Source: Candidatus Nitrospira inopinata
GTDB taxonomy: Bacteria > Nitrospirota > Nitrospiria > Nitrospirales > Nitrospiraceae
Length of the DNA: 32,000 bases
Direction: 5' to 3'
NCBI RefSeq assembly: GCF_001458695.1
Contig: NZ_LN885086.1
Location: 1,530,001 to 1,562,000, forward strand
Made by a program: the position numbers and the translations under genes. This document shows, one piece after another, positions 13,171-26,427 of the stretch. Every line of letters starts with the position of its first letter. The stretch's first letter is position 1. The notes beneath the pieces were generated by a model. It had not been told where the DNA came from. It saw only the letters and a list, made by a program, of their open reading frames with translations, and made no database searches.

Positions 13171-15231
13171 TTGCTTGTGACTACAGGATATTTACACGTT
13201 CGTTCCTTTATCGCCGTTGTCATCCTCGCGGCCTTCGCGCTGTCGGCAGCCGGTTGCTGGTGGTCGAGAGAGAAACCAAAGGTATCGGATGGCGGAGCGG
13301 AAACCTCTGATAGTCAAGCGCCAGCCATTGCGCTGAAGCCGTCGCTCTGGCTTGCTCCAAGCATGACCGGTGCGTCGCTCTCTTACACCAACGCCTGCGG
13401 GGAACCGAGCATCGTCTCGATTTCGGGCGTACTGACGGAAATCGTTCCCGCGAAGCTTGGCCAGGCGTTTTCCGGTCTTTTGCTCCATGAAGGAGAAGGG
13501 CAGGCCGGAGGAGAGGATAGTTTTATCGAAATCGGTCTGGGATCGAAACGAGTGGATCTTGTTGTTCCCCGTCAGACGCCGGGGACATATCCGGCGCGTG
13601 TCACGCTTGGAGTCGAAGCAGCCTTGCTCGCCGAGGATGGCGCCCCGCTGTTCCATGCCAAGCTTCAAGGCGTGGGCCATGGCGAGGTGGAAGTGACCGG
13701 CCAGTCTTGTGAAGTCAAAGGGTTGGAGCCCATTGTTCGGCAGGCGGTTGAAACGGTGGGCGACAGTTTGTTCAAACAGGTGACCGGAGCCGATCGAATT
13801 CGCGAGTATGCTCAACAGAGAGCGGCGGCCCGATCAAAGGCTCCCGCCGCAAAGGCTCCCGACGCGGCGATCCCAGGAGTGCAGAGTCCTCACGCCGGGG
13901 CGGCAATGGGGGGAGGCGCGGTTTTCAACCAGCTTGCTCCACCTCCCGCCTTCCCGCATTCGACGGCCCTTGCCTTTCTTGCCATCCTGCGGGATGAAAG
14001 CCAAGATCACATGATTGAACCGGGCGAGCCGCTCACGATCGAAGTGGAAGTCAAAAACGAGGGAGAGGTGGAGGCCAGGAACGTGGAAGTCGTCGTGGGA
14101 GGGAACGGGCCATTGGCCGCGCATTTTCCGTCGACGATCCCGATCGGCGACGTGCGGCCCGGAGAAATCAAGTACGTTTCGGTGACTAAACCGATCACGG
14201 ACCTCAAGGGCGAGCCGCGCGGCGAGTTGATGTTGAGCGTCCGCAGCCTCACGCCGCTGGACCCGCCGCCGCATCCCAAGCAGTTCGCCCTCGTCGTCAA
14301 GACGGACAAAGGCGTCGAGGATACGGAGGCGCTCAAGATCGACCGTCCTCCGGCGCCTCTGAGCTTATCCAAACAGACAAAGGCGGTGGTCATTGCGATA
14401 GGGGTCGGCGCATTTCGGGACGAGCGCGTCCCCCACGTCAAGTACGCGGAGCGGGATGCCGAGGCGATGGCGACCTATCTGCGAACGATTGCGGCGATTC
14501 CAGACCATCGTGTTCGTCTATTGGTGGATCGCTATGCGCTGAAGCAAGATATCGAAGAGACGTTTGACGAGTGGCTCCCCAAGCAGGTGGATGCGGCGAC
14601 CGTCGTGTACATTTTTTTCGCGGGGCGCGCGCTGGTTGACGGTGCGACCGGGTCGGTTTCCCTCGTGCCGTTTGACGGGAACATCACGTCAACGCGGCGC
14701 TTGTATCCGGTCCGGCGCATGCAGGAAGTTCTGTCGCGTTTGCCGATGCAACGGGCGATCATGATGTTCGATGTGTCGTTGGACCCCTCGCCGGGCGCAA
14801 ACCCGGCGACGACCCCTCATGCCGATTGGGGAGAAGGGGCGGACGAGGAAAAAGATCACGTGATGTGGATGGTGGGCAACAGGGGTCTTCAGGAAGCCCA
14901 TGCTTATGAATCGGCGAAGCACGGGTTGTTTACGTATTCTCTGCTAAGGGGATTGCAGGGGTTGGCCGATATTGATCGGGACGGGACCGTTGCCGCCGGA
15001 GAACTGTGCACTTATGCCCGCAATGAGGTCATCCATGTGTCGAGAAAACAGTTCGGCAACCCGCAGCGTCCGCTCTGTTCCCCGCCGCCCGGACAGGGGG
15101 CCGTCGTGAGGATTCATCCGATGGCGAGGGGCAATAACCCGAAATCGTCCGATGCCGTGAAGAAGGCGGCGCCGGCAGAAGAGACTCCCGCGCCGACCAG
15201 TCCGCTGCTTGATGTGGGGCCAAAGCTGTAG
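13171..15231 (+). CDS. lipoprotein with a CARDB-like Ig domain and a caspase (peptidase C14)-like domain lacking both catalytic residues
   Basis: TTG 13171 or GTG 13177 start. Lipobox LSAAGC. The middle region LTIEVEVKNEGEVEARNVEVVVGG...GEIKYVSV is CARDB-like. In the C14-like block VVIAIGV..Y...YAERDAEAMATYL, the canonical (S/A)GHG is AGRA (Arg codon 14626-14628) and the D-x-C is DVS (Ser codon 14776-14778). Confidence 0.75.
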   Translation: MLVTTGYLHVRSFIAVVILAAFALSAAGCWWSREKPKVSDGGAETSDSQAPAIALKPSLWLAPSMTGASLSYTNACGEPSIVSISGVLTEIVPAKLGQAFSGLLLHEGEGQAGGEDSFIEIGLGSKRVDLVVPRQTPGTYPARVTLGVEAALLAEDGAPLFHAKLQGVGHGEVEVTGQSCEVKGLEPIVRQAVETVGDSLFKQVTGADRIREYAQQRAAARSKAPAAKAPDAAIPGVQSPHAGAAMGGGAVFNQLAPPPAFPHSTALAFLAILRDESQDHMIEPGEPLTIEVEVKNEGEVEARNVEVVVGGNGPLAAHFPSTIPIGDVRPGEIKYVSVTKPITDLKGEPRGELMLSVRSLTPLDPPPHPKQFALVVKTDKGVEDTEALKIDRPPAPLSLSKQTKAVVIAIGVGAFRDERVPHVKYAERDAEAMATYLRTIAAIPDHRVRLLVDRYALKQDIEETFDEWLPKQVDAATVVYIFFAGRALVDGATGSVSLVPFDGNITSTRRLYPVRRMQEVLSRLPMQRAIMMFDVSLDPSPGANPATTPHADWGEGADEEKDHVMWMVGNRGLQEAHAYESAKHGLFTYSLLRGLQGLADIDRDGTVAAGELCTYARNEVIHVSRKQFGNPQRPLCSPPPGQGAVVRIHPMARGNNPKSSDAVKKAAPAEETPAPTSPLLDVGPKL

Positions 15232-15308: not shown

Positions 15309-15384
15309 GCCGGCGTAGCTCAGTCGGTAGAGCAGCGGTTTCGTAAACCGCAGGTCGCCCGTTCAATCCGGGTCGCCGGCTCCA
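15309..15384 (+). tRNA. tRNA-Thr (anticodon CGU), CCA encoded
   Basis: The cloverleaf was folded by hand. Acceptor GCCGGCG/CGCCGGC, D arm GCTC-AGTCGGTA-GAGC, anticodon arm GCGGT-TTCGTAA-ACCGC, variable loop AGGTC, T arm GCCCG-TTCAATC-CGGGT, then T-CCA. Confidence 0.95.
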
Positions 15385-16359: not shown

Positions 16360-17037
16360 CTATTTGGTCTGCAGAAAGGCCAGCACCGCTTCCACTCGCC
16401 CGTTGACGGAAAGTTTCCGATAGATGTGATGCAGGTGCGTTTTGACCGTATCAAGCGACACGCACAATTGGTCGGCGATTTCCTTGTTGGTGCGGCCCAT
16501 GGCTGCGCAGGCCAAGATTTCACGTTCCCGTTCGGTCAGGCCGGACAACGAGGCCGTTTCATGGGGATGGGTCTGCTCGACCGCCGCCAACGCGCGCCGT
16601 GCGAAATGATCCGGGGTAAACGGCGAGAGCAGATGTTCCCCCCGGTGGGCGGCGCGAATGCAGCGCAAGAGGTCATCAGAGTCCGCGTCCTTGAGGATAT
16701 AGCCGAACGCGCCGGCTTGCACGGCTTCGACGATGCGCGCGTCGTCGTCATCGGCCGACAGCACCAACACCCTGGTGTCGGGCACGCACCCGTGAATCAA
16801 TTTGGTGGCCGTGACCCCGTCGCGGCTCGGCGTGTCCAGGTCGATCAGCGCGAGGTCGGGTTTGTGGGCCATGGCCAGATTCAGCGCCTCGCGTCCGTCA
16901 GCCGCCTCGGCGACGACACGGATATCTCGTTCCCTTTCCAGGAGCGCGCGCAGACTTCGTCTTATCAGGCGGTATCGTTCGGCCAGCAGCAGCCGAATCG
17001 ACACCGCCCGCTCTTTTTTGGAGGGCTCTCGGATCAT
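16360..17037 (-). CDS. NarL/LuxR-family response regulator (REC + LuxR HTH), orphan
   Basis: The REC domain has the phospho-acceptor context LALIDLDTP, LVLSAD and GYILKD. The HTH reads LTEREREILACAAMGRTNKEIADQLCVSLDTVKTHLHHIYRKL. The usual N-terminal acidic pair DD reads AE (LLLAERYRLIR). Start is ATG 17037 (or TTG 17040). No histidine kinase is in the window. Confidence 0.9.
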   Translation of the reverse strand: MIREPSKKERAVSIRLLLAERYRLIRRSLRALLERERDIRVVAEAADGREALNLAMAHKPDLALIDLDTPSRDGVTATKLIHGCVPDTRVLVLSADDDDARIVEAVQAGAFGYILKDADSDDLLRCIRAAHRGEHLLSPFTPDHFARRALAAVEQTHPHETASLSGLTEREREILACAAMGRTNKEIADQLCVSLDTVKTHLHHIYRKLSVNGRVEAVLAFLQTK

Positions 17038-17055
17038 CAAGCGCTCATCACGGAC

Positions 17056-17271: not shown

Positions 17272-18225
17272 TCATGACGCCATGCGGTAGACCCACCGAG
17301 AGGCGTCGTGTTGCGCCTTGGCGAGTTCCTTTTCTTCTCTGCTTCGAGCCGCCCAGGACAGGCCGACTGCGAAGATCGCCGCCAGGATGCAGGCGGCGGC
17401 GACGAGATAGACGAACGGAACGTCGAGCCAGGCGGTCGATCGCTCGGATGCAACCGAGGCCGTGGCCGGAACCGCCACGACGGCCGTGATTGGAACGGCA
17501 CGATCGGCCACAGCTTGCGCGCGGGCGGCCGCGAAGACGAGGCTTCCCATCTTTTCTTGCTGCATGGCTCGGACCTGCTCGGCTTCCAGTTGAGCCAGCG
17601 CCAACTGAACCAGCGCCGCGCCCAGCCGTTCCTGAATCGCTTCGGCCTGCTTGCGATGGGCCCGGATGGCCTCAACGATGCGGTTTCCCAGTGTCACTTG
17701 CCACGTGGAAAAGAATTGGTGATTCATCATGTCTCTCCGAGCCTCGACGAGACCAATCATCTTGCTGTTGAAGGTTGAATGGAGCTGATCCGCCGACACA
17801 AGGCCGGCTCGCACGCCTCGGCCGGTGAAATTGACGATTGCGCGCCCCATCACTTCTTGGATTCGCCCCATGTGCTGGGCGGGGATTGTTGCCGCGTCGT
17901 GGATGACGGCTCCGAGTGGCCCGCCGGGCCTCGACACAAACTCCTCGTAGGCGAGCGTGGCTCGGTTCCATTCGGCTGCGGCCAGGGAAATGGCTCGGTT
18001 GACTCTACGCTCGAAGAGCGTCTGTTCGACGACGGCCTGCCCTATCGCCGGCTGGAGCCAGACCATCCCGGAATTCAAGCCTACGGATTGCTCAAAAGGA
18101 GAAGGTTGCGGAAGAGTCATCTGATATGTACCGCCGGCTGCGGCAAAGAACAACAACGCCCCGAACAGAATCGCGCACATACCGACGCCGACGGCGACGT
18201 CGATGGTGTTGTAACGGTAAGACAT
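17272..18225 (-). CDS. hypothetical membrane protein with N- and C-terminal TM helices flanking a ~230-aa helical domain
   Basis: I chose internal ATG 18225 because it follows AAGGAGG (track ORF starts at 18255). TM1 is VAVGVGMCAILFGALLFFAAA and the C-terminal TM is VPFVYLVAAACILAAIFAVGL. I recognise no family. Confidence 0.7.
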   Translation of the reverse strand: MSYRYNTIDVAVGVGMCAILFGALLFFAAAGGTYQMTLPQPSPFEQSVGLNSGMVWLQPAIGQAVVEQTLFERRVNRAISLAAAEWNRATLAYEEFVSRPGGPLGAVIHDAATIPAQHMGRIQEVMGRAIVNFTGRGVRAGLVSADQLHSTFNSKMIGLVEARRDMMNHQFFSTWQVTLGNRIVEAIRAHRKQAEAIQERLGAALVQLALAQLEAEQVRAMQQEKMGSLVFAAARAQAVADRAVPITAVVAVPATASVASERSTAWLDVPFVYLVAAACILAAIFAVGLSWAARSREEKELAKAQHDASRWVYRMAS

Positions 18226-18585
18226 AGAGACCTCCTTGCCACCGGCAACGATCACTCGTGTGGCTGCGAGTTGCTCGGACGATCAATCGAGGAGTCCGTT
18301 AAAGGCGCCTCTTTTCGATTGTCAGTGGAAGAAAGAGAAAAGAAGACGGAGAGGAAGTTGCACCTGCCACGTCCGTCCTGTTCGATCCCTGCGTCACGGA
18401 GGATCATGGCGACCACCCCCCTGAAAATAGACGGGCGGCACAGGTTCACTCTACGCCCCCTGGTCATGGCGGTCAAGGGGGGCGAATGCCTGGATTGTCG
18501 CTGGGAGAAAGAATCGAGAGTTGGTTGCTTGTGAGGGCTTATCTTATGAGGGGCAGGAGACGGCCCTCTCAACCCAAGAGATCTC

Positions 18586-18615
18586 TTGACAAGGCCCCGA
18601 TAGGGGAACGATAGT
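18586..18615 (+). promoter_or_regulatory. candidate sigma70 promoter for the 18737-20948 operon
   Basis: -35 TTGACA (18586-18591), an 18-nt spacer, then -10 GATAGT (18610-18615). The -10 lies inside the first copy of an 11-bp direct repeat. Confidence 0.35.
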
Positions 18616-18631
18616 TGCCGACGATAGTTGC
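18608..18631. repeat. 11-bp direct repeat acgatagttgc x2 (13-bp period) over the candidate -10/+1 region
   Basis: Copies lie at 18608-18618 and 18621-18631, both perfect. Confidence 0.9.
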
Positions 18632-18736
18632 AGATGTTGTTTGCGAGCAAGCAAGCAAGTCTGAAAAATCCATACTTCTCTACGGATCGGTGGTCCGATT
18701 CCAGTCACCGCTGGACCAGGTTGACAGGGGGGAGAG

Positions 18737-19294
18737 ATGGACCAAAGGCGGACAATCGTTCTCGTCGGCATCATCATCGTCGCAGCGGCATTCCGACTGC
18801 TTCCCCATCCGCCAAATGTGACGCCGATTGAAGCGTTGGCCTTGTTCGGAGGCGCCGTCTTTGCCGACAAGCGAGCGGCGTTTCTGGTGCCATTGACGGC
18901 CTTGTTGATTAGTGACCTTGCCGTTGGTCTGATCAGCGGAAATCTGTCGTTGGGGCTCCACAGGCTGCTCCCCGTCGTGTACGGGAGCTTCGCCCTGATG
19001 GTGTGTCTCGGGTTTTGGCTGCGTCGGCGGCGTCGAGTCTTGCCGATTGCCGGGGCGACGGTGACGGGATCGACGGTATTCTTTGTGCTGACCAACGTCG
19101 GCGTCTGGGCACTGGCCGATCTTTATCCCAAGAGCTGGGATGGGCTGATCGCCTGTTACATCGCCGCTATTGCATTCTTCCACCATACGGTGCTCGGCGA
19201 TGCGCGCTATGTCTCTCTGCTGTTCGGCGGGTTGGCGCTTGTCGAGAGAGGCTGGCCGCTTGTGCGCGAGCCGGAGCTCAGTTCGGCTCGATAG
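18737..19294 (+). CDS. small polytopic membrane protein (about 6 TM helices), DUF6580-like / ECF S-component-like
   Basis: SD GGGGGGAGAG precedes the ATG. The N-terminal signature RLLPHPPNVTPIEALALFGGAVF matches my recollection of the uncharacterised family with R(L/I)xPHxPNFxPIxAxALFGG. Confidence 0.65.
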   Translation: MDQRRTIVLVGIIIVAAAFRLLPHPPNVTPIEALALFGGAVFADKRAAFLVPLTALLISDLAVGLISGNLSLGLHRLLPVVYGSFALMVCLGFWLRRRRRVLPIAGATVTGSTVFFVLTNVGVWALADLYPKSWDGLIACYIAAIAFFHHTVLGDARYVSLLFGGLALVERGWPLVREPELSSAR

Positions 19295-19302
19295 GAGGTG
19301 CA

Positions 19303-20256
19303 ATGAGGATTGTCTCGCTGCTCCCCAGTGCGACGGAGATGATTTGCGCGCTTAGATTGGAAGCACATTTGGTCGGGGTCACCCACGAGTGCGATTTCCC
19401 ACCGTTCGTGATCACTGTACCCAAGGTCACGCACACCTTGATTCCAACAGATTCATCCAGCGCCGACATCGATCGACTGGTCCGCGAGCAGTTGCGGACG
19501 ACACAAGCTCTGTACCGCCTTGACTTTCCAACGTTGGAACAATTGCGTCCCGACCTGATCGTCACGCAAGCCTTGTGCGATGTCTGCGCGGTGGCCGAGG
19601 ACGAGGTTCGTTCTGCCGCCTGTGCTCTTCCCGGAACGCCTCAGGTTGTCAGTTTGGAGCCGCAAGCCCTTTCGGAGGTCTTCGACGCCATCCGCCATCT
19701 TGCCGAGATCACGGGAGTTCGGCAGCGGGGTGAGGAAGTGGTCCATGGGTTGAAGGCCAGGGTAGAGGCAGTCGCCATCAAAAGCGCGGGGCTTCAATAC
19801 CGACCGCGCGTCGCATTGCTGGAATGGCTCGATCCGCCGTTCTCCAGTGGACATTGGGGCCCGGAGTTGGTCCGATTGGCGGGCGGCGTGGAAGGGTTAG
19901 GCCGCGAGGGGCAACGGTCAAGAACCTTACATTGGGATGAAGTGATGGAGTGGCAGCCGGAGGTGATCGTCATCGCCTGTTGCGGCTTCTCCGTGGAACG
20001 GACCTTGGCGGACCTTCCTCGGCTGTGGGCCGTGCCGGGCTGGTCGACGTTGCCGGCTGTTCGATCAGACCGCGTGTATGTGGTGGACGGATCGCAGTAT
20101 TTTAGCCGTCCAGGTCCTCGGCTGGTCGATAGTCTGGAGATCTTGGCCCATGCGCTTCATCCGGACGTCCATCCATTGCCGCATGGATTGCCGCCGCCTC
20201 TTCGTGTGGAGCGGTCGATGAGGGCAAGCCACGGTTCCAAGGCCCAAGTCGGATGA
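19303..20256 (+). CDS. BtuF-like (Peripla_BP_2 family) cobalamin/chelate-binding protein without a signal peptide
   Basis: ATG 19303 follows AGGAGG, which overlaps the upstream stop codon. The 100-codon N-terminal extension in the track overlaps the upstream gene. MRIVSLLPSATEMICALRLEAHLVGVTHECDFP resembles the BtuF N-terminus (..SP..TE......G....VGV....DYP). Confidence 0.8.
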   Translation: MRIVSLLPSATEMICALRLEAHLVGVTHECDFPPFVITVPKVTHTLIPTDSSSADIDRLVREQLRTTQALYRLDFPTLEQLRPDLIVTQALCDVCAVAEDEVRSAACALPGTPQVVSLEPQALSEVFDAIRHLAEITGVRQRGEEVVHGLKARVEAVAIKSAGLQYRPRVALLEWLDPPFSSGHWGPELVRLAGGVEGLGREGQRSRTLHWDEVMEWQPEVIVIACCGFSVERTLADLPRLWAVPGWSTLPAVRSDRVYVVDGSQYFSRPGPRLVDSLEILAHALHPDVHPLPHGLPPPLRVERSMRASHGSKAQVG

Positions 20257-20948
20257 CCCGCAGAGTCCTCCTTTCCTGGAGCTCAGGAAAAGACAGTGCC
20301 TGGACCTTGCACGTGCTGCGAGCAGAGCCGGATGTCGAGGTGATCGGTCTCTTGACGACCGTCAACACCGCCCATGGCCGGGTTTCTATGCATGCGACCA
20401 GGCTTGAAATTCTTCAAGCGCAGGCCCGCTCGGTCGGACTCCCGCTTCAGACGATTCCCCTTCCGCAACCCTGCTCCAATGAGGTCTATGAAGAAGCCAT
20501 GCGCCGTGCGATCGAAGACGGGATCAAGATCGGCGCGACGCACATCGCCTTCGGCGATCTATTGCTGGAAGACATCCGTGCGTATCGGATCAAACAGCTC
20601 GAAGGGACCGGGTTGGCTCCGCTCTTTCCACTGTGGCAGGAGCCGACGGCACTGCTGGCGCGTCGCATGGTTGATGCTGGACTCAAGGCGGTGGTGACCT
20701 GTGTGGATCTCAAGCGACTGCCTCCTTCATTTGCTGGCCGATCGTTTGACCATTCCTTTCTCGACGACCTGCCGTCCGGCGTCGATCCATGCGGCGAGAA
20801 CGGTGAGTTTCATACTTGCGTGCTCGATGGCCCGATGTTTTCCGGACCAGTGCAGGCGATGGTCGGTGAAGTCGTGGAGCGGGACGGATTCTGCTTCGCT
20901 GATCTCGTGCCGGAAGAGGATCGGGGGAGTGAACACACACCGGCTTGA
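20253..20948 (+). CDS. PP-loop ATP pyrophosphatase of the MJ0570/Dph6-related (diphthamide synthase-like) family
   Basis: An ATGA overlap joins it to the upstream gene. PP-loop LSWSSGKDS, then THIAFGDLLLEDIRAYR, PLFPLW and CGENGEFHTCVLDGPMF. Confidence 0.8.
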   Translation: MTRRVLLSWSSGKDSAWTLHVLRAEPDVEVIGLLTTVNTAHGRVSMHATRLEILQAQARSVGLPLQTIPLPQPCSNEVYEEAMRRAIEDGIKIGATHIAFGDLLLEDIRAYRIKQLEGTGLAPLFPLWQEPTALLARRMVDAGLKAVVTCVDLKRLPPSFAGRSFDHSFLDDLPSGVDPCGENGEFHTCVLDGPMFSGPVQAMVGEVVERDGFCFADLVPEEDRGSEHTPA

Positions 20949-21257: not shown

Positions 21258-21317
21258 CTCTTGGGTGACATGACGGCTCCTGCCCAGTCCGTGAAGGCTG
21301 GGCGGAAAGGAGTGGTC

Positions 21318-22166
21318 ATGATGCCCGTAAGTGTCTCCCCTCGCGCAAAAACGGTTGAAGGCGCGAGATCCATTTCGATTGTTCAGGCATTCGTTCTTCT
21401 TATCGTTGTGTTTGATGGGCAACAGGCACTCGCCGTCCGACCGTTTGTCACGGATGACGCCCGCATCACCTATCCGGGCCAGCTTGAGACCGAATCATGG
21501 ATTGAACTAGGAACTGCCCGTGGGCAAAAGCCGGAGTGGGGTCTCCATGTCTTGACGGGCACCACGGTCAGCGATCGGCTGGAGATCATCGCGGGTTGGA
21601 CTGGGGTCTCGTACCAGGATCGTCGGATTCATCTCGACGATCTCGTCGTGCAGCCCAAGTACCTGCTCTACCGGTCTTTCGGTGCGATCCCTTCCGTGTC
21701 GGCCGCCGTGGGGGTTCTCGCGCCGATCAGTGGCAATCGGCAGCTCTGGAACAGTTACGCGATGGTCCATGTGAGCTGGTTCTTAGACATGCCGGAAGGC
21801 AGCACCGATCCCTATGACAATGGGTTGGCGATCCATATCAACCTGGGGACCAAGTCTCAATATCACGCCGGACTGAGCGGCCGTTATACGACGAAACCCT
21901 ATTGGGGCGTAGGGTTCGAGGTGAAAACGCCGATCTCCAGGGACTTTCGCTTTCTCGGCGAAGTCTTCAACGCGGATCCATTTCATTTCGAGGGGGAATT
22001 TCCCGCGTTTCAGACCGGTTTCCGTTGGTACAAAAGCCCCAATGTGCAATGGGACGTTGTCTATGGCGGGTTTCGAAGTCCGCCTGGGGAGGAGGACCGC
22101 CCATGGAATCACACATTCCAAATCGGTTTGCGTGTGCTGTTCGACGATGTGTTTCCGTTCCGATGA
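21318..22166 (+). CDS. putative outer-membrane beta-barrel protein (MetA-pathway/transporter-like family)
   Basis: ATG 21318 follows AAAGGAG (track ORF starts at TTG 21261). The signal peptide ends ..GQQALA. The mature N-terminus VRPFVTDDARITYPGQLETESW and the alternating hydrophobic pattern are typical of small barrels. Confidence 0.6.
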   Translation: MMPVSVSPRAKTVEGARSISIVQAFVLLIVVFDGQQALAVRPFVTDDARITYPGQLETESWIELGTARGQKPEWGLHVLTGTTVSDRLEIIAGWTGVSYQDRRIHLDDLVVQPKYLLYRSFGAIPSVSAAVGVLAPISGNRQLWNSYAMVHVSWFLDMPEGSTDPYDNGLAIHINLGTKSQYHAGLSGRYTTKPYWGVGFEVKTPISRDFRFLGEVFNADPFHFEGEFPAFQTGFRWYKSPNVQWDVVYGGFRSPPGEEDRPWNHTFQIGLRVLFDDVFPFR

Positions 22167-22598: not shown

Positions 22599-25364
22599 AT
22601 GACCCTGACTTGGCTCAAAGAGTTGTTCGCGGCGTTTCTCCGCACCCGCCGGATCGCCAGACACTTCCGCCGTCTGGCGTGGATCGACACGCTTACGCAG
22701 GTCACCGTAAGCCGAGCGGTGCCGCCGAGCCTGGCTCAAACTCTCGTCAAGGCGGCCACGGCCGACCCCGATGTCCTGTTGGCTGAGTTGAACAGTCATG
22801 CGGACGGATTGTCCGAGGCCCAGGCCGAGGTCGTTCGGGATCGGGTCGGCTTCAATGAGGTCGATCACGAGAAGCCCCTCTCCTGGTGGCAACGGCTGTG
22901 GCTCTCCTACCGGAACCCCTTCAACCTGCTCCTGACGCTGCTGGCGGTGATTTCATGGCTGACCGAAGACGTGGAGGCTACTGTCGTCATCGGCGCGATG
23001 GTGGCGCTCTCCACGTTGCTCCGTTTTTGGCAAGAAGCCAAGGCCAACAAGGCGGCTGATGCGCTCAAGGCCATGGTCACCACCACCGCGACGGTCGTCC
23101 GCCGAGACGTTTCGGAGGACGCCGCGCCGATCTTTGAAAAGTTTTACGGCGTCCAGCTCCACGTGAAGCTGGCTCGACGGGTGGAGGTCCCCATTCGGCT
23201 GTTGGTGCCCGGCGACGTCATCGCGCTCTCGGCGGGCGACATGATTCCGGCAGATTGCCGCGTCCTTACGGCCAAAGATCTGTTTGTGTCGCAGGCGGCC
23301 ATGACGGGCGAGTCGATGCCGGTGGAGAAGTTCGCAGTCCAGCGAGACGCCAAGACGGTCGGCCCGCTCGAATTGGACAATATCCTGTTCATGGGGACCA
23401 CCGTCGTGTCCGGTTCGGCCACGGCCGTCGTGATCGCCACCGGCAACAGGACGTACTTCGGCGCGCTCGCAAGCCGCGTCACCGCCGCCGACCGGGCGCC
23501 GACCTCGTTTCAAGCCGGGGTCAACCAGGTGAGCTGGCTCCTGATCCGTTTCATGCTCGTGATGGCGCCGTTGGTCCTCGTCATCAACGGCTTCACCAAG
23601 AACGATTGGACGGAGGCGCTCTTATTCGCGTTGTCCATCGCCGTGGGGCTCACGCCGGAGATGCTGCCGCTCATCGTGACCTCGACGTTGGCCAAAGGCG
23701 CGGTGTTTCTGTCCCGCAAAAAGGTGATCGTGAAGCGGCTGGAGTCGATCCAGAATTTCGGCGCGATGGACGTGCTCTGCACCGACAAGACCGGCACGCT
23801 GACCCAAGACAAGATCTTTCTGGAGCGGCACGTCGACGTCTGGGGTGAAGACTCGGACGAAGTGCTCCACATGGCGTACCTCAACAGCTATTACCAGACC
23901 GGCTTGAAAAACCTGTTGGACATCGCCGTGCTGGAGCACGCCGAGGTGCGTCGCAAGCTGGATCCGGCCAAAAACTACCGCAAGGTCGATGAGATTCCGT
24001 TCGATTTTACCCGCCGCCGCATGTCGGTGGTGGTCAGTGAGCGCGAGGATCATCATGAGCTGATCTGCAAGGGAGCCGTGGAGGAAATTCTGAACGTCTG
24101 TACGCACGTGCGGCGCGGAGAACGCGTCGAGCCGTTGACGACCGATCTGTTGGCCGGCGTGCGAGAAGTCACCGCCGAATTGAACAAAGAAGGCTTGCGA
24201 GTCGTGGCCGTCGCCGCCAAGGAGGTCCCGCCGAGCAAAGAGACCTACGGCGTGGCCGACGAGTCGGAGCTGACCCTGATCGGCTACGTGGCCTTCCTCG
24301 ATCCGCCGAAGGAGTCCGCTGAGCCGGCGCTTAAGGCTCTGGCCGCACATGGTGTGTCGGTCAAGGTGCTGACCGGGGATAACGAACTGGTCACCGCCAA
24401 GATTTGCCGCGAGGTCGGGCTGGAGCAATGGGGGGTCCTGTTGGGCGGTGACATCGAGACCATGAGCGACGAGGAACTCGCCAAGGCCGTCGAGTCGCAC
24501 ACGGTGTTCGCCAAGCTGACTCCGGCGCACAAGGAGCGGATCGTGCGCCTCCTCAAGTCCAACGGCCACGTGGTGGGTTTCATGGGCGACGGCATCAACG
24601 ACGCCCCGGCCCTACGGACCGCCGACATCGGGATCTCGGTCGATACGGCGGTGGATATCGCCAAGGAGGCGGCGGACATCATCCTGTTGGAAAAGAGCCT
24701 GATGGTGTTGGAGGAGGGAATCGTGGAAGGTCGCAAGACCTTTTGCAACATGCTCAAGTACATCAAGATGACGGCCAGCTCCAACTTCGGCAACGTCTTC
24801 TCGGTGCTGGTGGCGTCGGCTTTCCTGCCGTTTCTGCCGATGTTGCCGATGCAACTGCTTGTCCAGAACCTGCTTTACGATGTCTCCCAGATTGCCATCC
24901 CCTTCGACAATGTCGATGACGAGCTGCTCAAGAAGCCTCAACGGTGGCAGCCGGCCGATATCGGGCGCTTCATGGTGTTTTTCGGGCCGATCAGCTCGCT
25001 GTTTGACATCCTCACCTATGCCATGCTGTGGTTCGTGTTCAGCGCCGACACACCGGAGGAGCAGACTCTCTTTCATTCCGGGTGGTTCATCGTCGGCCTC
25101 TTGACGCAAACGCTGATCGTGCACTTGATCCGCACACCCAAGGTTCCATTTATCCAGAGCCGGGCGTCGATGCCGTTGCTGGCGATGACGGGGGCGATCA
25201 TGGCCATCGGCGTCTTCATTCCGATGGGGCCGCTGGCCGACTACTTCAAACTGCAAGCGTTGCCGCCGTTGTACTTCGTGCTGCTCCCGATGATTCTCCT
25301 GGGGTATATGGCGCTGACCCAAGCGATGAAGGGGGTCTATGTTCGCCGTTATGGCTGGCAGTAG
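22599..25364 (+). CDS. mgtA: magnesium-translocating P-type ATPase
   Basis: A 921-aa protein with TGES (AAMTGESMP), the phosphorylation site DKTGTLT, TGDN, MGDGINDAPAL, and an MgtA-type N-terminus (GLSEAQAEVVRDRVGFNEV). Confidence 0.95.
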   Translation: MTLTWLKELFAAFLRTRRIARHFRRLAWIDTLTQVTVSRAVPPSLAQTLVKAATADPDVLLAELNSHADGLSEAQAEVVRDRVGFNEVDHEKPLSWWQRLWLSYRNPFNLLLTLLAVISWLTEDVEATVVIGAMVALSTLLRFWQEAKANKAADALKAMVTTTATVVRRDVSEDAAPIFEKFYGVQLHVKLARRVEVPIRLLVPGDVIALSAGDMIPADCRVLTAKDLFVSQAAMTGESMPVEKFAVQRDAKTVGPLELDNILFMGTTVVSGSATAVVIATGNRTYFGALASRVTAADRAPTSFQAGVNQVSWLLIRFMLVMAPLVLVINGFTKNDWTEALLFALSIAVGLTPEMLPLIVTSTLAKGAVFLSRKKVIVKRLESIQNFGAMDVLCTDKTGTLTQDKIFLERHVDVWGEDSDEVLHMAYLNSYYQTGLKNLLDIAVLEHAEVRRKLDPAKNYRKVDEIPFDFTRRRMSVVVSEREDHHELICKGAVEEILNVCTHVRRGERVEPLTTDLLAGVREVTAELNKEGLRVVAVAAKEVPPSKETYGVADESELTLIGYVAFLDPPKESAEPALKALAAHGVSVKVLTGDNELVTAKICREVGLEQWGVLLGGDIETMSDEELAKAVESHTVFAKLTPAHKERIVRLLKSNGHVVGFMGDGINDAPALRTADIGISVDTAVDIAKEAADIILLEKSLMVLEEGIVEGRKTFCNMLKYIKMTASSNFGNVFSVLVASAFLPFLPMLPMQLLVQNLLYDVSQIAIPFDNVDDELLKKPQRWQPADIGRFMVFFGPISSLFDILTYAMLWFVFSADTPEEQTLFHSGWFIVGLLTQTLIVHLIRTPKVPFIQSRASMPLLAMTGAIMAIGVFIPMGPLADYFKLQALPPLYFVLLPMILLGYMALTQAMKGVYVRRYGWQ

Positions 25365-25491: not shown

Positions 25492-26427
25492 GTGAACGGC
25501 CTCAACCGAGATGGAGAATCCGTTAATACCGCGGCGAGAAAAAAGGCCGCGCAGCCCGCTAGTGCGAGGCCTTCGTTGCTGGTGGTTCCCCGTCCCCTCA
25601 TCAGAGAATTGATGCGCCTCTATGAGTATCCTCATCCGTCCAAGCCGGGCGCCGTCATTCGAGGATACGACCGGGCCCACGCGATTCGCACGGCGATGAT
25701 GTGCGCGGTGGTGGCCGAACGGCTGGGTCATCCGGCGGATCGGCTCGTTGATTATCAAGTCGCCTGTCTGTTGCACGACGTGAGCCGAGCCGGACTCGAC
25801 CGACGGCTTTTCGGCAAGATCTGGTCATGGGCCAAGGCCCATGGCATTCCCACGAGACCTCGTGAGTGGCGCGCGAAGTATCCCGCCACTCCCTATGGGC
25901 GAGAAACGGAAGCCTTTGTCGCTCGTTATGGAAAGGAGTTAGAGGCGGCCGGCGTCCCCCTGACTGCCTGGGCCAAGGAGCAAATCGAGATTCGGCTGGG
26001 GCACGCTCGCCGTCTCCGGAGACGCCTGGCGGTCGTCAAACCGGCCCTGCGTCACTTGGGAATCAGGTGGGTGCCGTGGATGCAGGAGGTGATGCTCTAC
26101 TACTACTATCCAGAGAAGTTGTCGTGTGCGAAACCCTGGGTCAAACAATTGGCGGAGATTTTGGTGGCCTGCGAACAACTCGAAGCCTACAGCAACCGAC
26201 AGCGCGGCCGGGATTATTACGCGCGGAAGCAGGAGTCGTTTCCCGAGGCCTTTGCCTACCTGAATCGGCTTCAAACGGAGGGGCTAATCAGCCGACCGGT
26301 CATGGCGGCCCTGCGTGAGCTCGTCGCGGAGGGCAAGTTTGACAGGATTTTGGAACAGGCGCGAGGAAGCTCGCTCACTGAGCAGGAGCGGCGATACCTT
26401 CGCGGGCTGGCGCAGGAGAGACGGTGA
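25492..26427 (+). CDS. HD-domain protein (metal-dependent phosphohydrolase superfamily), function unknown
   Basis: H...HD pattern: RAHAIRTAMMCAVVAERLG ... VACLLHDVSRAG. The start is uncertain: GTG 25492 has no clear SD, and an internal Met lies at ELMRLYEY. Confidence 0.55.
   Translation: MNGLNRDGESVNTAARKKAAQPASARPSLLVVPRPLIRELMRLYEYPHPSKPGAVIRGYDRAHAIRTAMMCAVVAERLGHPADRLVDYQVACLLHDVSRAGLDRRLFGKIWSWAKAHGIPTRPREWRAKYPATPYGRETEAFVARYGKELEAAGVPLTAWAKEQIEIRLGHARRLRRRLAVVKPALRHLGIRWVPWMQEVMLYYYYPEKLSCAKPWVKQLAEILVACEQLEAYSNRQRGRDYYARKQESFPEAFAYLNRLQTEGLISRPVMAALRELVAEGKFDRILEQARGSSLTEQERRYLRGLAQERR

Follow-up and report, generated by a model that had tools for sequence, protein, structure and literature searches.

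A candidate module for the import, cytoplasmic capture and ATP-dependent processing of corrinoids in Candidatus Nitrospira inopinata

A stretch of 32,000 nucleotides from the genome of Candidatus Nitrospira inopinata (contig NZ_LN885086.1, positions 1,530,001 to 1,562,000; hereafter the window, with positions counted from its first letter) carries three closely packed genes on the forward strand. Gene 1 (18737-19294, +) encodes a membrane protein of 185 residues belonging to family DUF6580, a candidate inner-membrane corrinoid carrier; gene 2 (19303-20256, +) encodes a BtuF-like protein of 317 residues that lacks a signal peptide, a candidate cytoplasmic corrinoid binder or chaperone; and gene 3 (20253-20948, +) encodes a PP-loop ATP pyrophosphatase of 231 residues belonging to the DUF71-B12 subgroup. 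On the basis of comparative genomics and structure prediction, we propose, with a probability of about 0.65, that this trio is a module for the import of corrinoids, their capture in the cytoplasm and their ATP-dependent processing. The original prediction, made from the sequence alone, had pointed to the tight arrangement of the genes, and both junctions can be read directly in the sequence. The TAG stop codon of gene 1 (19292-19294) opens the motif TAGGAGG (19292-19298) that constitutes the Shine-Dalgarno site of gene 2, so that stop codon, GGAGG and the ATG of gene 2 all fall within 19292-19305 (+), and genes 2 and 3 are translationally coupled by an ATGA overlap (20253-20256, +). The start codon of gene 2 is the ATG at 19303, not 19304, and gives the N-terminus MRIVSLLPSATE. 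The intergenic region upstream of gene 1 (18256-18736, +) is devoid of a cobalamin riboswitch and contains a weak sigma-70-like site (TTGACA-18-GATAGT, 18586-18615) that does not exceed the shuffled expectation. No FecCD permease, ABC ATPase or TonB receptor was found in the window by tblastn, which agrees with the earlier statement that ABC permease and ATPase genes are absent; the BtuFCD and BtuB genes of this genome are located about 940 kb away.

DUF6580 (PF20221, E 7e-55) is the only family assigned by Pfam to the product of gene 1. The family is named 'putative transport protein' by NCBI, and our literature searches returned no relevant paper on it. The AlphaFold2 (AF2) model (predicted local distance difference test, pLDDT, of 91.7) is a six-helix bundle with the fold of an S-component. 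Its best match among solved structures is BtuM (8c7p/8ovv; VIA Z 14.6, root-mean-square deviation 3.1 Å over 167 residues; Foldseek template modelling score, TM, 0.67-0.71), followed by the S-components FolT, BioY, RibU and ThiT of energy-coupling factor (ECF) transporters at Z 10-12 (at most 11.9). BtuM of Thiobacillus denitrificans is a solitary S-component-like transporter of vitamin B12 (PDB 6FFV, 8C7P, 8OVV) that uses a cysteine and has conserved H28 and D67 residues in its pocket (Rempel 2018, PMC6072759). DUF6580 proteins resemble BtuM in several respects: they are small six-helix proteins with the S-component fold, they are found where an ECF module is lacking and where BtuB and adenosyltransferase genes are present, and they have an invariant cysteine together with conserved His/Asp residues predicted near the outer face. 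EcfT (PF02361) was not matched in the present genome, which is 99.99% complete. They differ from BtuM in their sequence (13% identity, profile E-value above 10, another Pfam family) and in their spread over Planctomycetota, Acidobacteriota, Gammaproteobacteria and others; sequence homology of DUF6580 to BtuM was rejected after a negative profile search of the PDB sequences. Residues P23, H24, D60, N120 and C140 are invariant in the family. An N-in topology is indicated by the positively charged N-terminus and by an RRRRR loop (residues 96-100), and from it we infer that the invariant H24, D60, N120, W124 and C140 would lie near the outer face. The gene adjoins a TonB receptor in 13 loci, nine of which show no FecCD in their flanks. 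In three Halieaceae loci (L050, L054 and L063), a DUF6580 paralogue is present on each side of the binder gene, with a TonB receptor and a riboswitch ahead of them; one homologue (L080:7403-7915) has two in-frame stops and may be a pseudogene or reflect a sequencing error.

The product of gene 2 belongs to Peripla_BP_2 (PF01497, E 1e-17) and scores 18.8 bits against the BtuF equivalog NF002894, for which the cut-off is 234. Its AF2 model (pLDDT 90.8) adopts the class III binding-protein fold; in Foldseek the model comes closest to BtuF and to the haem binders ShuT, RhuT and PhuT, at TM 0.6-0.8, and it aligns with Escherichia coli BtuF (1n4a) at a TMt of 0.83 and with Vibrio cholerae BtuF (5ysc) at an E-value of 8.5e-15. 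Like these two BtuF proteins (1N4A and 5YSC), it has the two-lobe class III fold of PF01497, a conserved N-terminal PSxTE loop and a conserved RPxPR-type motif in the C-lobe; in the alignment to V. cholerae BtuF, the segment THECDYP stands opposite SEYSDYP. Unlike BtuF, it has neither a signal peptide nor an adjacent BtuCD, it falls far under the equivalog cut-off, it contains an additional helix insertion (about residues 44-70), and it displays invariant H28, C30, C92, C95, H184 and C227 residues on loops of the cleft side. The family is also 50-76% identical across phyla, unlike exported binders. Full-length homologues in this range are found in Nitrospira, Acidobacteriota, Planctomycetota, Gemmatimonadota and Bacteroidota, and further in Pseudomonadota, Armatimonadota, Actinomycetota and Ignavibacteriota.

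The absence of an export signal on the gene 2 protein, which had been deduced from the present sequence, was borne out across the family. The reading frame of gene 2 stays open upstream as far as a GTG at 19003, within gene 1. Of 69 homologous loci, however, 40 offer no in-frame start in the interval that separates the conserved M/V-R-I-V-S-L-L-P from the stop codon before it, an interval often of 0-10 codons; among 1,291 representative binder clusters (E<=1e-30), almost all of the best 150 begin at residue 1-16. Because no alternative start exists upstream in these 40 loci, the protein is considered cytoplasmic, and its true start adds no signal peptide. Residues H28, C30, D31, C92, C95, H184, W185 and C227 are invariant in 68 binder sequences, as is a motif spanning F267-R273, and all of them directly follow beta-strands in the AF2 model. 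As the loops after beta-strands line the inter-lobe cleft in the class III fold, we infer that these residues would face the ligand. Literature searches gave no description of a cytoplasmic BtuF-like binder.

The product of gene 3 matches Diphthami_syn_2 (PF01902, E 8e-29), has 3rjz and 2d13 as relatives in the PDB, and scores 66.9 against the Dph6 equivalog TIGR03679, below the cut-off of 197.3. Its PP-loop has the sequence SSGKDS (residues 10-15), and the segment GENGEFH (residues 181-187) fits the ENGEF/YH motif that replaces the EGGE/DxE motif of Dph6 in bacterial DUF71 proteins clustering with B12 genes (de Crecy-Lagard 2012, PMC3541065). A motif GE.GE[FY]H is present in all but one of 24 binder-linked DUF71 homologues and in five of five other Nitrospirota DUF71 proteins. 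Gene 3 resembles the DUF71-B12 subgroup in its PP-loop and ENGEF/YH motifs, and its relatives cluster with genes for B12 uptake and salvage. It is about 30% identical to the other Nitrospirota DUF71 proteins and 50-62% identical to the binder-linked DUF71 proteins of other phyla. In contrast to the subgroup as published, its partner is a cytoplasmic binder instead of the exported BtuF of a BtuCDF system, and no riboswitch is present; within the window, the uncharacterised binder and DUF6580 are its only B12-type neighbours.

To define the context in which the binder is found, 80 loci carrying binder homologues from at least nine phyla were surveyed by tblastn and clustering of open reading frames (ORFs), with cluster representatives compared to Pfam. 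The genes beside the binder encode DUF71 (25 of the 80 loci), DUF6580 (19-22), a TonB receptor (18), an ABC ATPase (12), FecCD (8), and adenosyltransferases of the PduO type (7) and of the CobA type (7). Cobalamin riboswitches were detected with a home-made nhmmer profile in at least 22 of these loci, and RF00174 was located directly upstream in eight of nine binder loci scanned with Rfam. The complete trio was found in nine loci, from Nitrospira, Planctomycetota, Pseudomonadota and Ignavibacteriales, and the gene order varies (gene 1-gene 2-gene 3, gene 1-gene 3-gene 2 and others). Co-occurrence of the three families, which the original prediction had proposed to examine across genomes, thus extends over four phyla, but the three genes do not form an obligate unit: in most cases the binder is found without the other two, and DUF71-B12 mostly accompanies an ordinary exported BtuF. 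Combined, the joint recurrence in several phyla, the varying order and the existence of natural fusions indicate that, as judged from sequence comparisons, the arrangement is beyond chance.

These fusions were found among the long homologues of the binder. Among 62 such long homologues, about 28 protein clusters are binder-DUF5522-DUF71 fusions, all of which carry SGGKDS and E.GEFH, and one fusion has the reverse order, DUF71-binder. Fusions of binder and DUF71 come from bacteria and from algae, including the diatom Cylindrotheca, the red alga Rhodosorus, Volvox and MMETSP transcripts. About seven green-algal proteins combine CbiA and GATase_3 domains (CobB/CobQ-like) with the binder (for instance P0258, P0260 and P0300). 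The binder-DUF71 fusions are the strongest evidence suggesting that the products of genes 2 and 3 act on the same molecule. They also bear on an alternative in which the binder is chiefly a cytoplasmic sensor or store of corrinoids, its adjacency to DUF6580 and DUF71 being a convenience of operon organization and not a sign of hand-off. The frequent occurrence of the binder alone and its fusion in one protein to PAS-GGDEF-EAL domains (P0250) would fit such a role; about 28 independent clusters of binder-DUF71 fusions and the ATGA coupling in the present locus argue against it, and we consider it improbable. P0250 itself, a metagenomic protein of 1139 residues with the binder domain at its C-terminus, could be a corrinoid-responsive cyclic di-GMP (c-di-GMP) enzyme. 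DUF5522 is a small Cys-rich domain with a CCGxGCRHCP-type motif that adjoins the binder and DUF71 or sits between them (L082:12992-13930, L029:1704-1964, L046:9034-9267 and the about 28 fusion proteins). It was not found in the present genome, and literature searches returned no relevant papers on it, nor on a riboswitch associated with PP-loop or diphthamide enzymes.

The assignment of corrinoids as the ligand class is supported, at the level of sequence and predicted fold, by the riboswitches, the neighbouring BtuB and adenosyltransferase genes, the BtuM-like fold of DUF6580 and the binder-DUF71 fusions. Haem, a siderophore or another tetrapyrrole might be bound instead, given that ShuT, RhuT and PhuT, the top Foldseek matches of the gene 2 model, score like BtuF. 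However, corrinoids are indicated by the cobalamin riboswitches, by the adenosyltransferases for corrinoids and by the DUF71-B12 signature, and the flanks of the 80 loci show no recurrent genes for haem or siderophores. A ligand of this other kind thus appears very improbable.

The genome is a single contig of 3.295 Mb, and its closest relatives are metagenome-assembled genomes of Nitrospira with 97% amino-acid identity. CbiC was not found in it, which indicates that there is no de novo pathway for the corrin ring. At least eight proteins with B12-binding domains are encoded, and three cobalamin riboswitches are present, all outside the window. Two of them belong to a salvage island some 940 kb distant from the window (C1:2487175-2500013, locus L090): the first is followed by genes for an exported BtuF, FecCD, an ABC ATPase and a CN_hydrolase, and the second by genes for a TonB receptor, a PduO-type adenosyltransferase, CobU, CobT, CobS, CbiB, CobD and CbiZ. 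The lack of a de novo pathway, the B12-binding proteins and the riboswitch-controlled salvage island together indicate that the host depends on imported corrinoids. On the model of NadE, the CN_hydrolase of the btuFCD operon was considered as a source of ammonia for the PP-loop enzyme, an idea dropped because it recurs in 0 of the 80 loci. The third riboswitch (C1:320989-321193, -, locus L091) is located upstream of class I ribonucleotide reductase (nrdAB) and the B12-independent methionine synthase metE, which corresponds to the usual repression of B12-independent isozymes by B12.

The distribution of these families was then considered in a sample of 151 Nitrospirota genomes. DUF71 is present in 29 and CbiZ in 31; the two occur together in one, the present genome, and are mutually exclusive in the other 150. 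An anticorrelation of DUF71-B12 with CbiZ in bacteria has been reported, and a CbiZ-like route of pseudo-B12 salvage was proposed for DUF71-B12 by the same authors (PMC3541065). The present genome, with CbiZ in addition to gene 3, departs from the reported pattern, and this coexistence argues against a simple interchangeability of the two. In five other Nitrospirota, DUF71 lies within riboswitch operons, either beside CobT, CobS, CbiB, CobD and CobU or beside BtuFCD; the orders include TonB receptor-DUF71-CobT-CobS...CbiB-CobD-CobU-BtuF and BtuF-FecCD-ABC-DUF71, and the adjoining BtuF genes have obvious signal peptides. This is exactly the place at which Nitrospira carries CbiZ. CbiZ, an amidohydrolase of adenosylcobinamide and pseudo-B12, thus fills the same operon niche as DUF71, beside CbiB, CobD, CobU, CobT and CobS, whereas its fold is unrelated to that of gene 3 and it is an ATP-independent hydrolase, gene 3 encoding an ATP pyrophosphatase. 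Two Nitrospirota DUF71 genes (in G067 and G116) contain one internal TAG each and may be pseudogenes or sequencing errors.

From these observations the following route can be proposed. A corrinoid would pass the outer membrane by way of a BtuB-type receptor, the gene for which lies at another place in the genome, and the solitary S-component-like DUF6580 protein would carry it over the inner membrane without an ATPase. The leaderless, Cys/His-rich gene 2 protein would then capture it in the cytoplasm, giving directionality to transport and holding the corrinoid for processing enzymes. The DUF71-B12 enzyme would spend ATP, releasing AMP and pyrophosphate, to adenylate a carbonyl of the corrinoid. 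QueC and other PP-loop enzymes are known to activate amide oxygens in addition to carboxylate oxygens. As a committed guess, gene 3 would act at the node of cobyric acid and cobinamide, from which CbiB and the assembly of the nucleotide loop are supplied, and would thereby be a functional alternative to CbiZ in the salvage of incomplete or wrong-base corrinoids. We lean to this node because of the phyletic exclusion of DUF71 and CbiZ and the operon position of DUF71; the assignment is tentative, at somewhat less than even odds. The scheme proposed initially, of a solitary carrier, an intracellular binder and an adenylating or amidating enzyme acting on a corrinoid- or tetrapyrrole-like ligand, is thus partly supported: its core, with a corrinoid as the ligand, agrees with comparative genomics, and it has to be corrected for the classical BtuFCD route that the genome also possesses.

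The same module could operate with a different final step, in which DUF71-B12 re-amidates free carboxylates of the corrin side chains, as repair of deamidated corrinoids or as completion of those amidated in part, on a substrate presented by the binder. The characterised relative Dph6 converts a carboxylate to an amide with ATP and ammonia (PMC3541065), and the binder domain is fused to CbiA+GATase_3 amidotransferases in green algae without B12 synthesis of their own (P0258, P0260 and P0300). Re-amidation would also suit algae lacking CbiB and a genome that carries CbiZ in addition. Against it, the fact that DUF71 and CbiZ exclude each other almost perfectly and the position of DUF71 among nucleotide-loop genes would be left unexplained, and the catalytic Glu of the Dph6 EGGE/DxE motif is replaced in gene 3, as in DUF71-B12, by a His, which suggests an altered reaction. 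We regard re-amidation as rather unlikely, but as the main rival reading and as more probable than the sensor role considered above.

A number of observations weigh against a corrinoid module as proposed here, or against parts of it. Firstly, concerning the association of the genes, 40 of the 80 binder loci are without any B12 neighbour, and in five genomes with a stand-alone binder no DUF71 (PF01902) was found and DUF6580 was present elsewhere in two only. Within Nitrospirota, the gene 2-type binder occurs in 21 of the 151 genomes, all of them Nitrospiraceae, a family in which 20 of 25 genomes have it, binder and DUF71 occur together in only two, and DUF6580 is restricted to the present genome. 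Secondly, no cobalamin riboswitch was found in the window, either with Rfam (at the gathering threshold, and at E<=10 upstream of gene 1) or with the nhmmer riboswitch profile, the sole Rfam match being a tRNA; the riboswitch for which the original prediction suggested a screen is therefore absent from this locus and is found instead at those of relatives. A degenerate riboswitch upstream of gene 1 was ruled out by the same searches. Thirdly, concerning gene 1, phmmer and profile hmmsearch against PDB sequences revealed no similarity of DUF6580 to BtuM or any solved structure at E<=10, and the invariant cysteine of DUF6580, C140 in helix 6, differs in position from Cys80 of BtuM. Finally, concerning the reaction, a PP-loop ATPase does not readily suggest an amidohydrolase, and the algae with the fusion are reportedly without CbiB (PMC4850488), a poor fit to a CbiZ-like role.

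The trio may also be redundant, since the genome already has BtuB, BtuFCD and CbiZ. The ratio of nonsynonymous to synonymous substitution rates (dN/dS) of gene 1 is 0.87 relative to its counterpart in L005 (about 22 differences), so that this gene looks relaxed in the clade; the L005 protein is without two near-invariant prolines, and the gene is absent from L006 and L007. For genes 2 and 3, dN/dS relative to Nitrospira relatives is 0.09-0.23, with dS up to 1.0, which indicates purifying selection. In a quick tree, the binder sequences of different phyla interleave. Could the trio be a remnant of horizontal origin, without a riboswitch and largely redundant, that is heading for loss? The rarity of DUF6580 in the phylum, the presence of DUF71 in two of 26 Nitrospiraceae, the missing riboswitch, the state of gene 1 and the scrambled binder tree would fit. 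The three frames are intact, however, with a strong Shine-Dalgarno site and translational coupling; purifying selection acts on genes 2 and 3; and the GC content of the trio (60.4%, compared to 59.2% for the genome) indicates that any transfer was not recent. A remnant of this kind is thus improbable in our judgement. In our reading, the trio was acquired horizontally long ago, probably by a Nitrospira unable to make the corrin ring, and its transporter may by now duplicate the function of BtuFCD.

The other genes around the trio have no evident link to B12. They comprise a tRNA (15309-15381, +), a LuxR-type response regulator (16360-17040, -) and a P-type cation ATPase of 921 residues (22599-25364, +). 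Four ORFs gave no Pfam match at E<=1e-4: 13171-15231 (+, 686 residues), 17272-18255 (-, 327 residues), which is divergent from gene 1, 21261-22166 (+, 301 residues) and 25492-26427 (+, 311 residues). In the loci of relatives, S-adenosylhomocysteine (SAH) riboswitches are found a few kb from B12 operons in Gammaproteobacteria (L059:2202-2281, L062:34-112 and L067:2239-2312), and a c-di-GMP-I riboswitch is similarly found a few kb from a B12 operon in a member of the Gemmataceae (L013:4314-4401).

Three features are new for this stretch: a trio without a riboswitch, the presence of CbiZ and DUF71-B12 in one genome, and a DUF6580 gene that is unique in the phylum sample. The combination had been thought undescribed; this holds for DUF6580 and the cytoplasmic binder in the literature searched, whilst the link between the PP-loop family and B12 had been published (PMC3541065). 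More generally, the signal-less BtuF-like protein could be a widespread intracellular corrinoid chaperone, from bacteria to algae, that presents corrinoids to carbonyl-activating enzymes (DUF71-B12 or CobB-like amidotransferases) in an undescribed step of repair or remodelling, and DUF6580 could be a new family of importers that take up B12 independently of energy, analogous to BtuM and unrelated to it in sequence. This wider proposal is speculative, and the odds are against it as a whole. The trio bears on the import of B12 across the inner membrane in the many bacteria that have BtuB but not BtuCD, on the reaction of DUF71-B12, a question that dates from 2012, and on the remodelling of B12 analogues in algae without CbiZ or CbiB. 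The three proteins are small and either soluble or easily expressed, and the binder-enzyme fusions indicate which of them pair up. Nitrospira are key nitrifiers, and their need for external corrinoids affects interactions within their communities.

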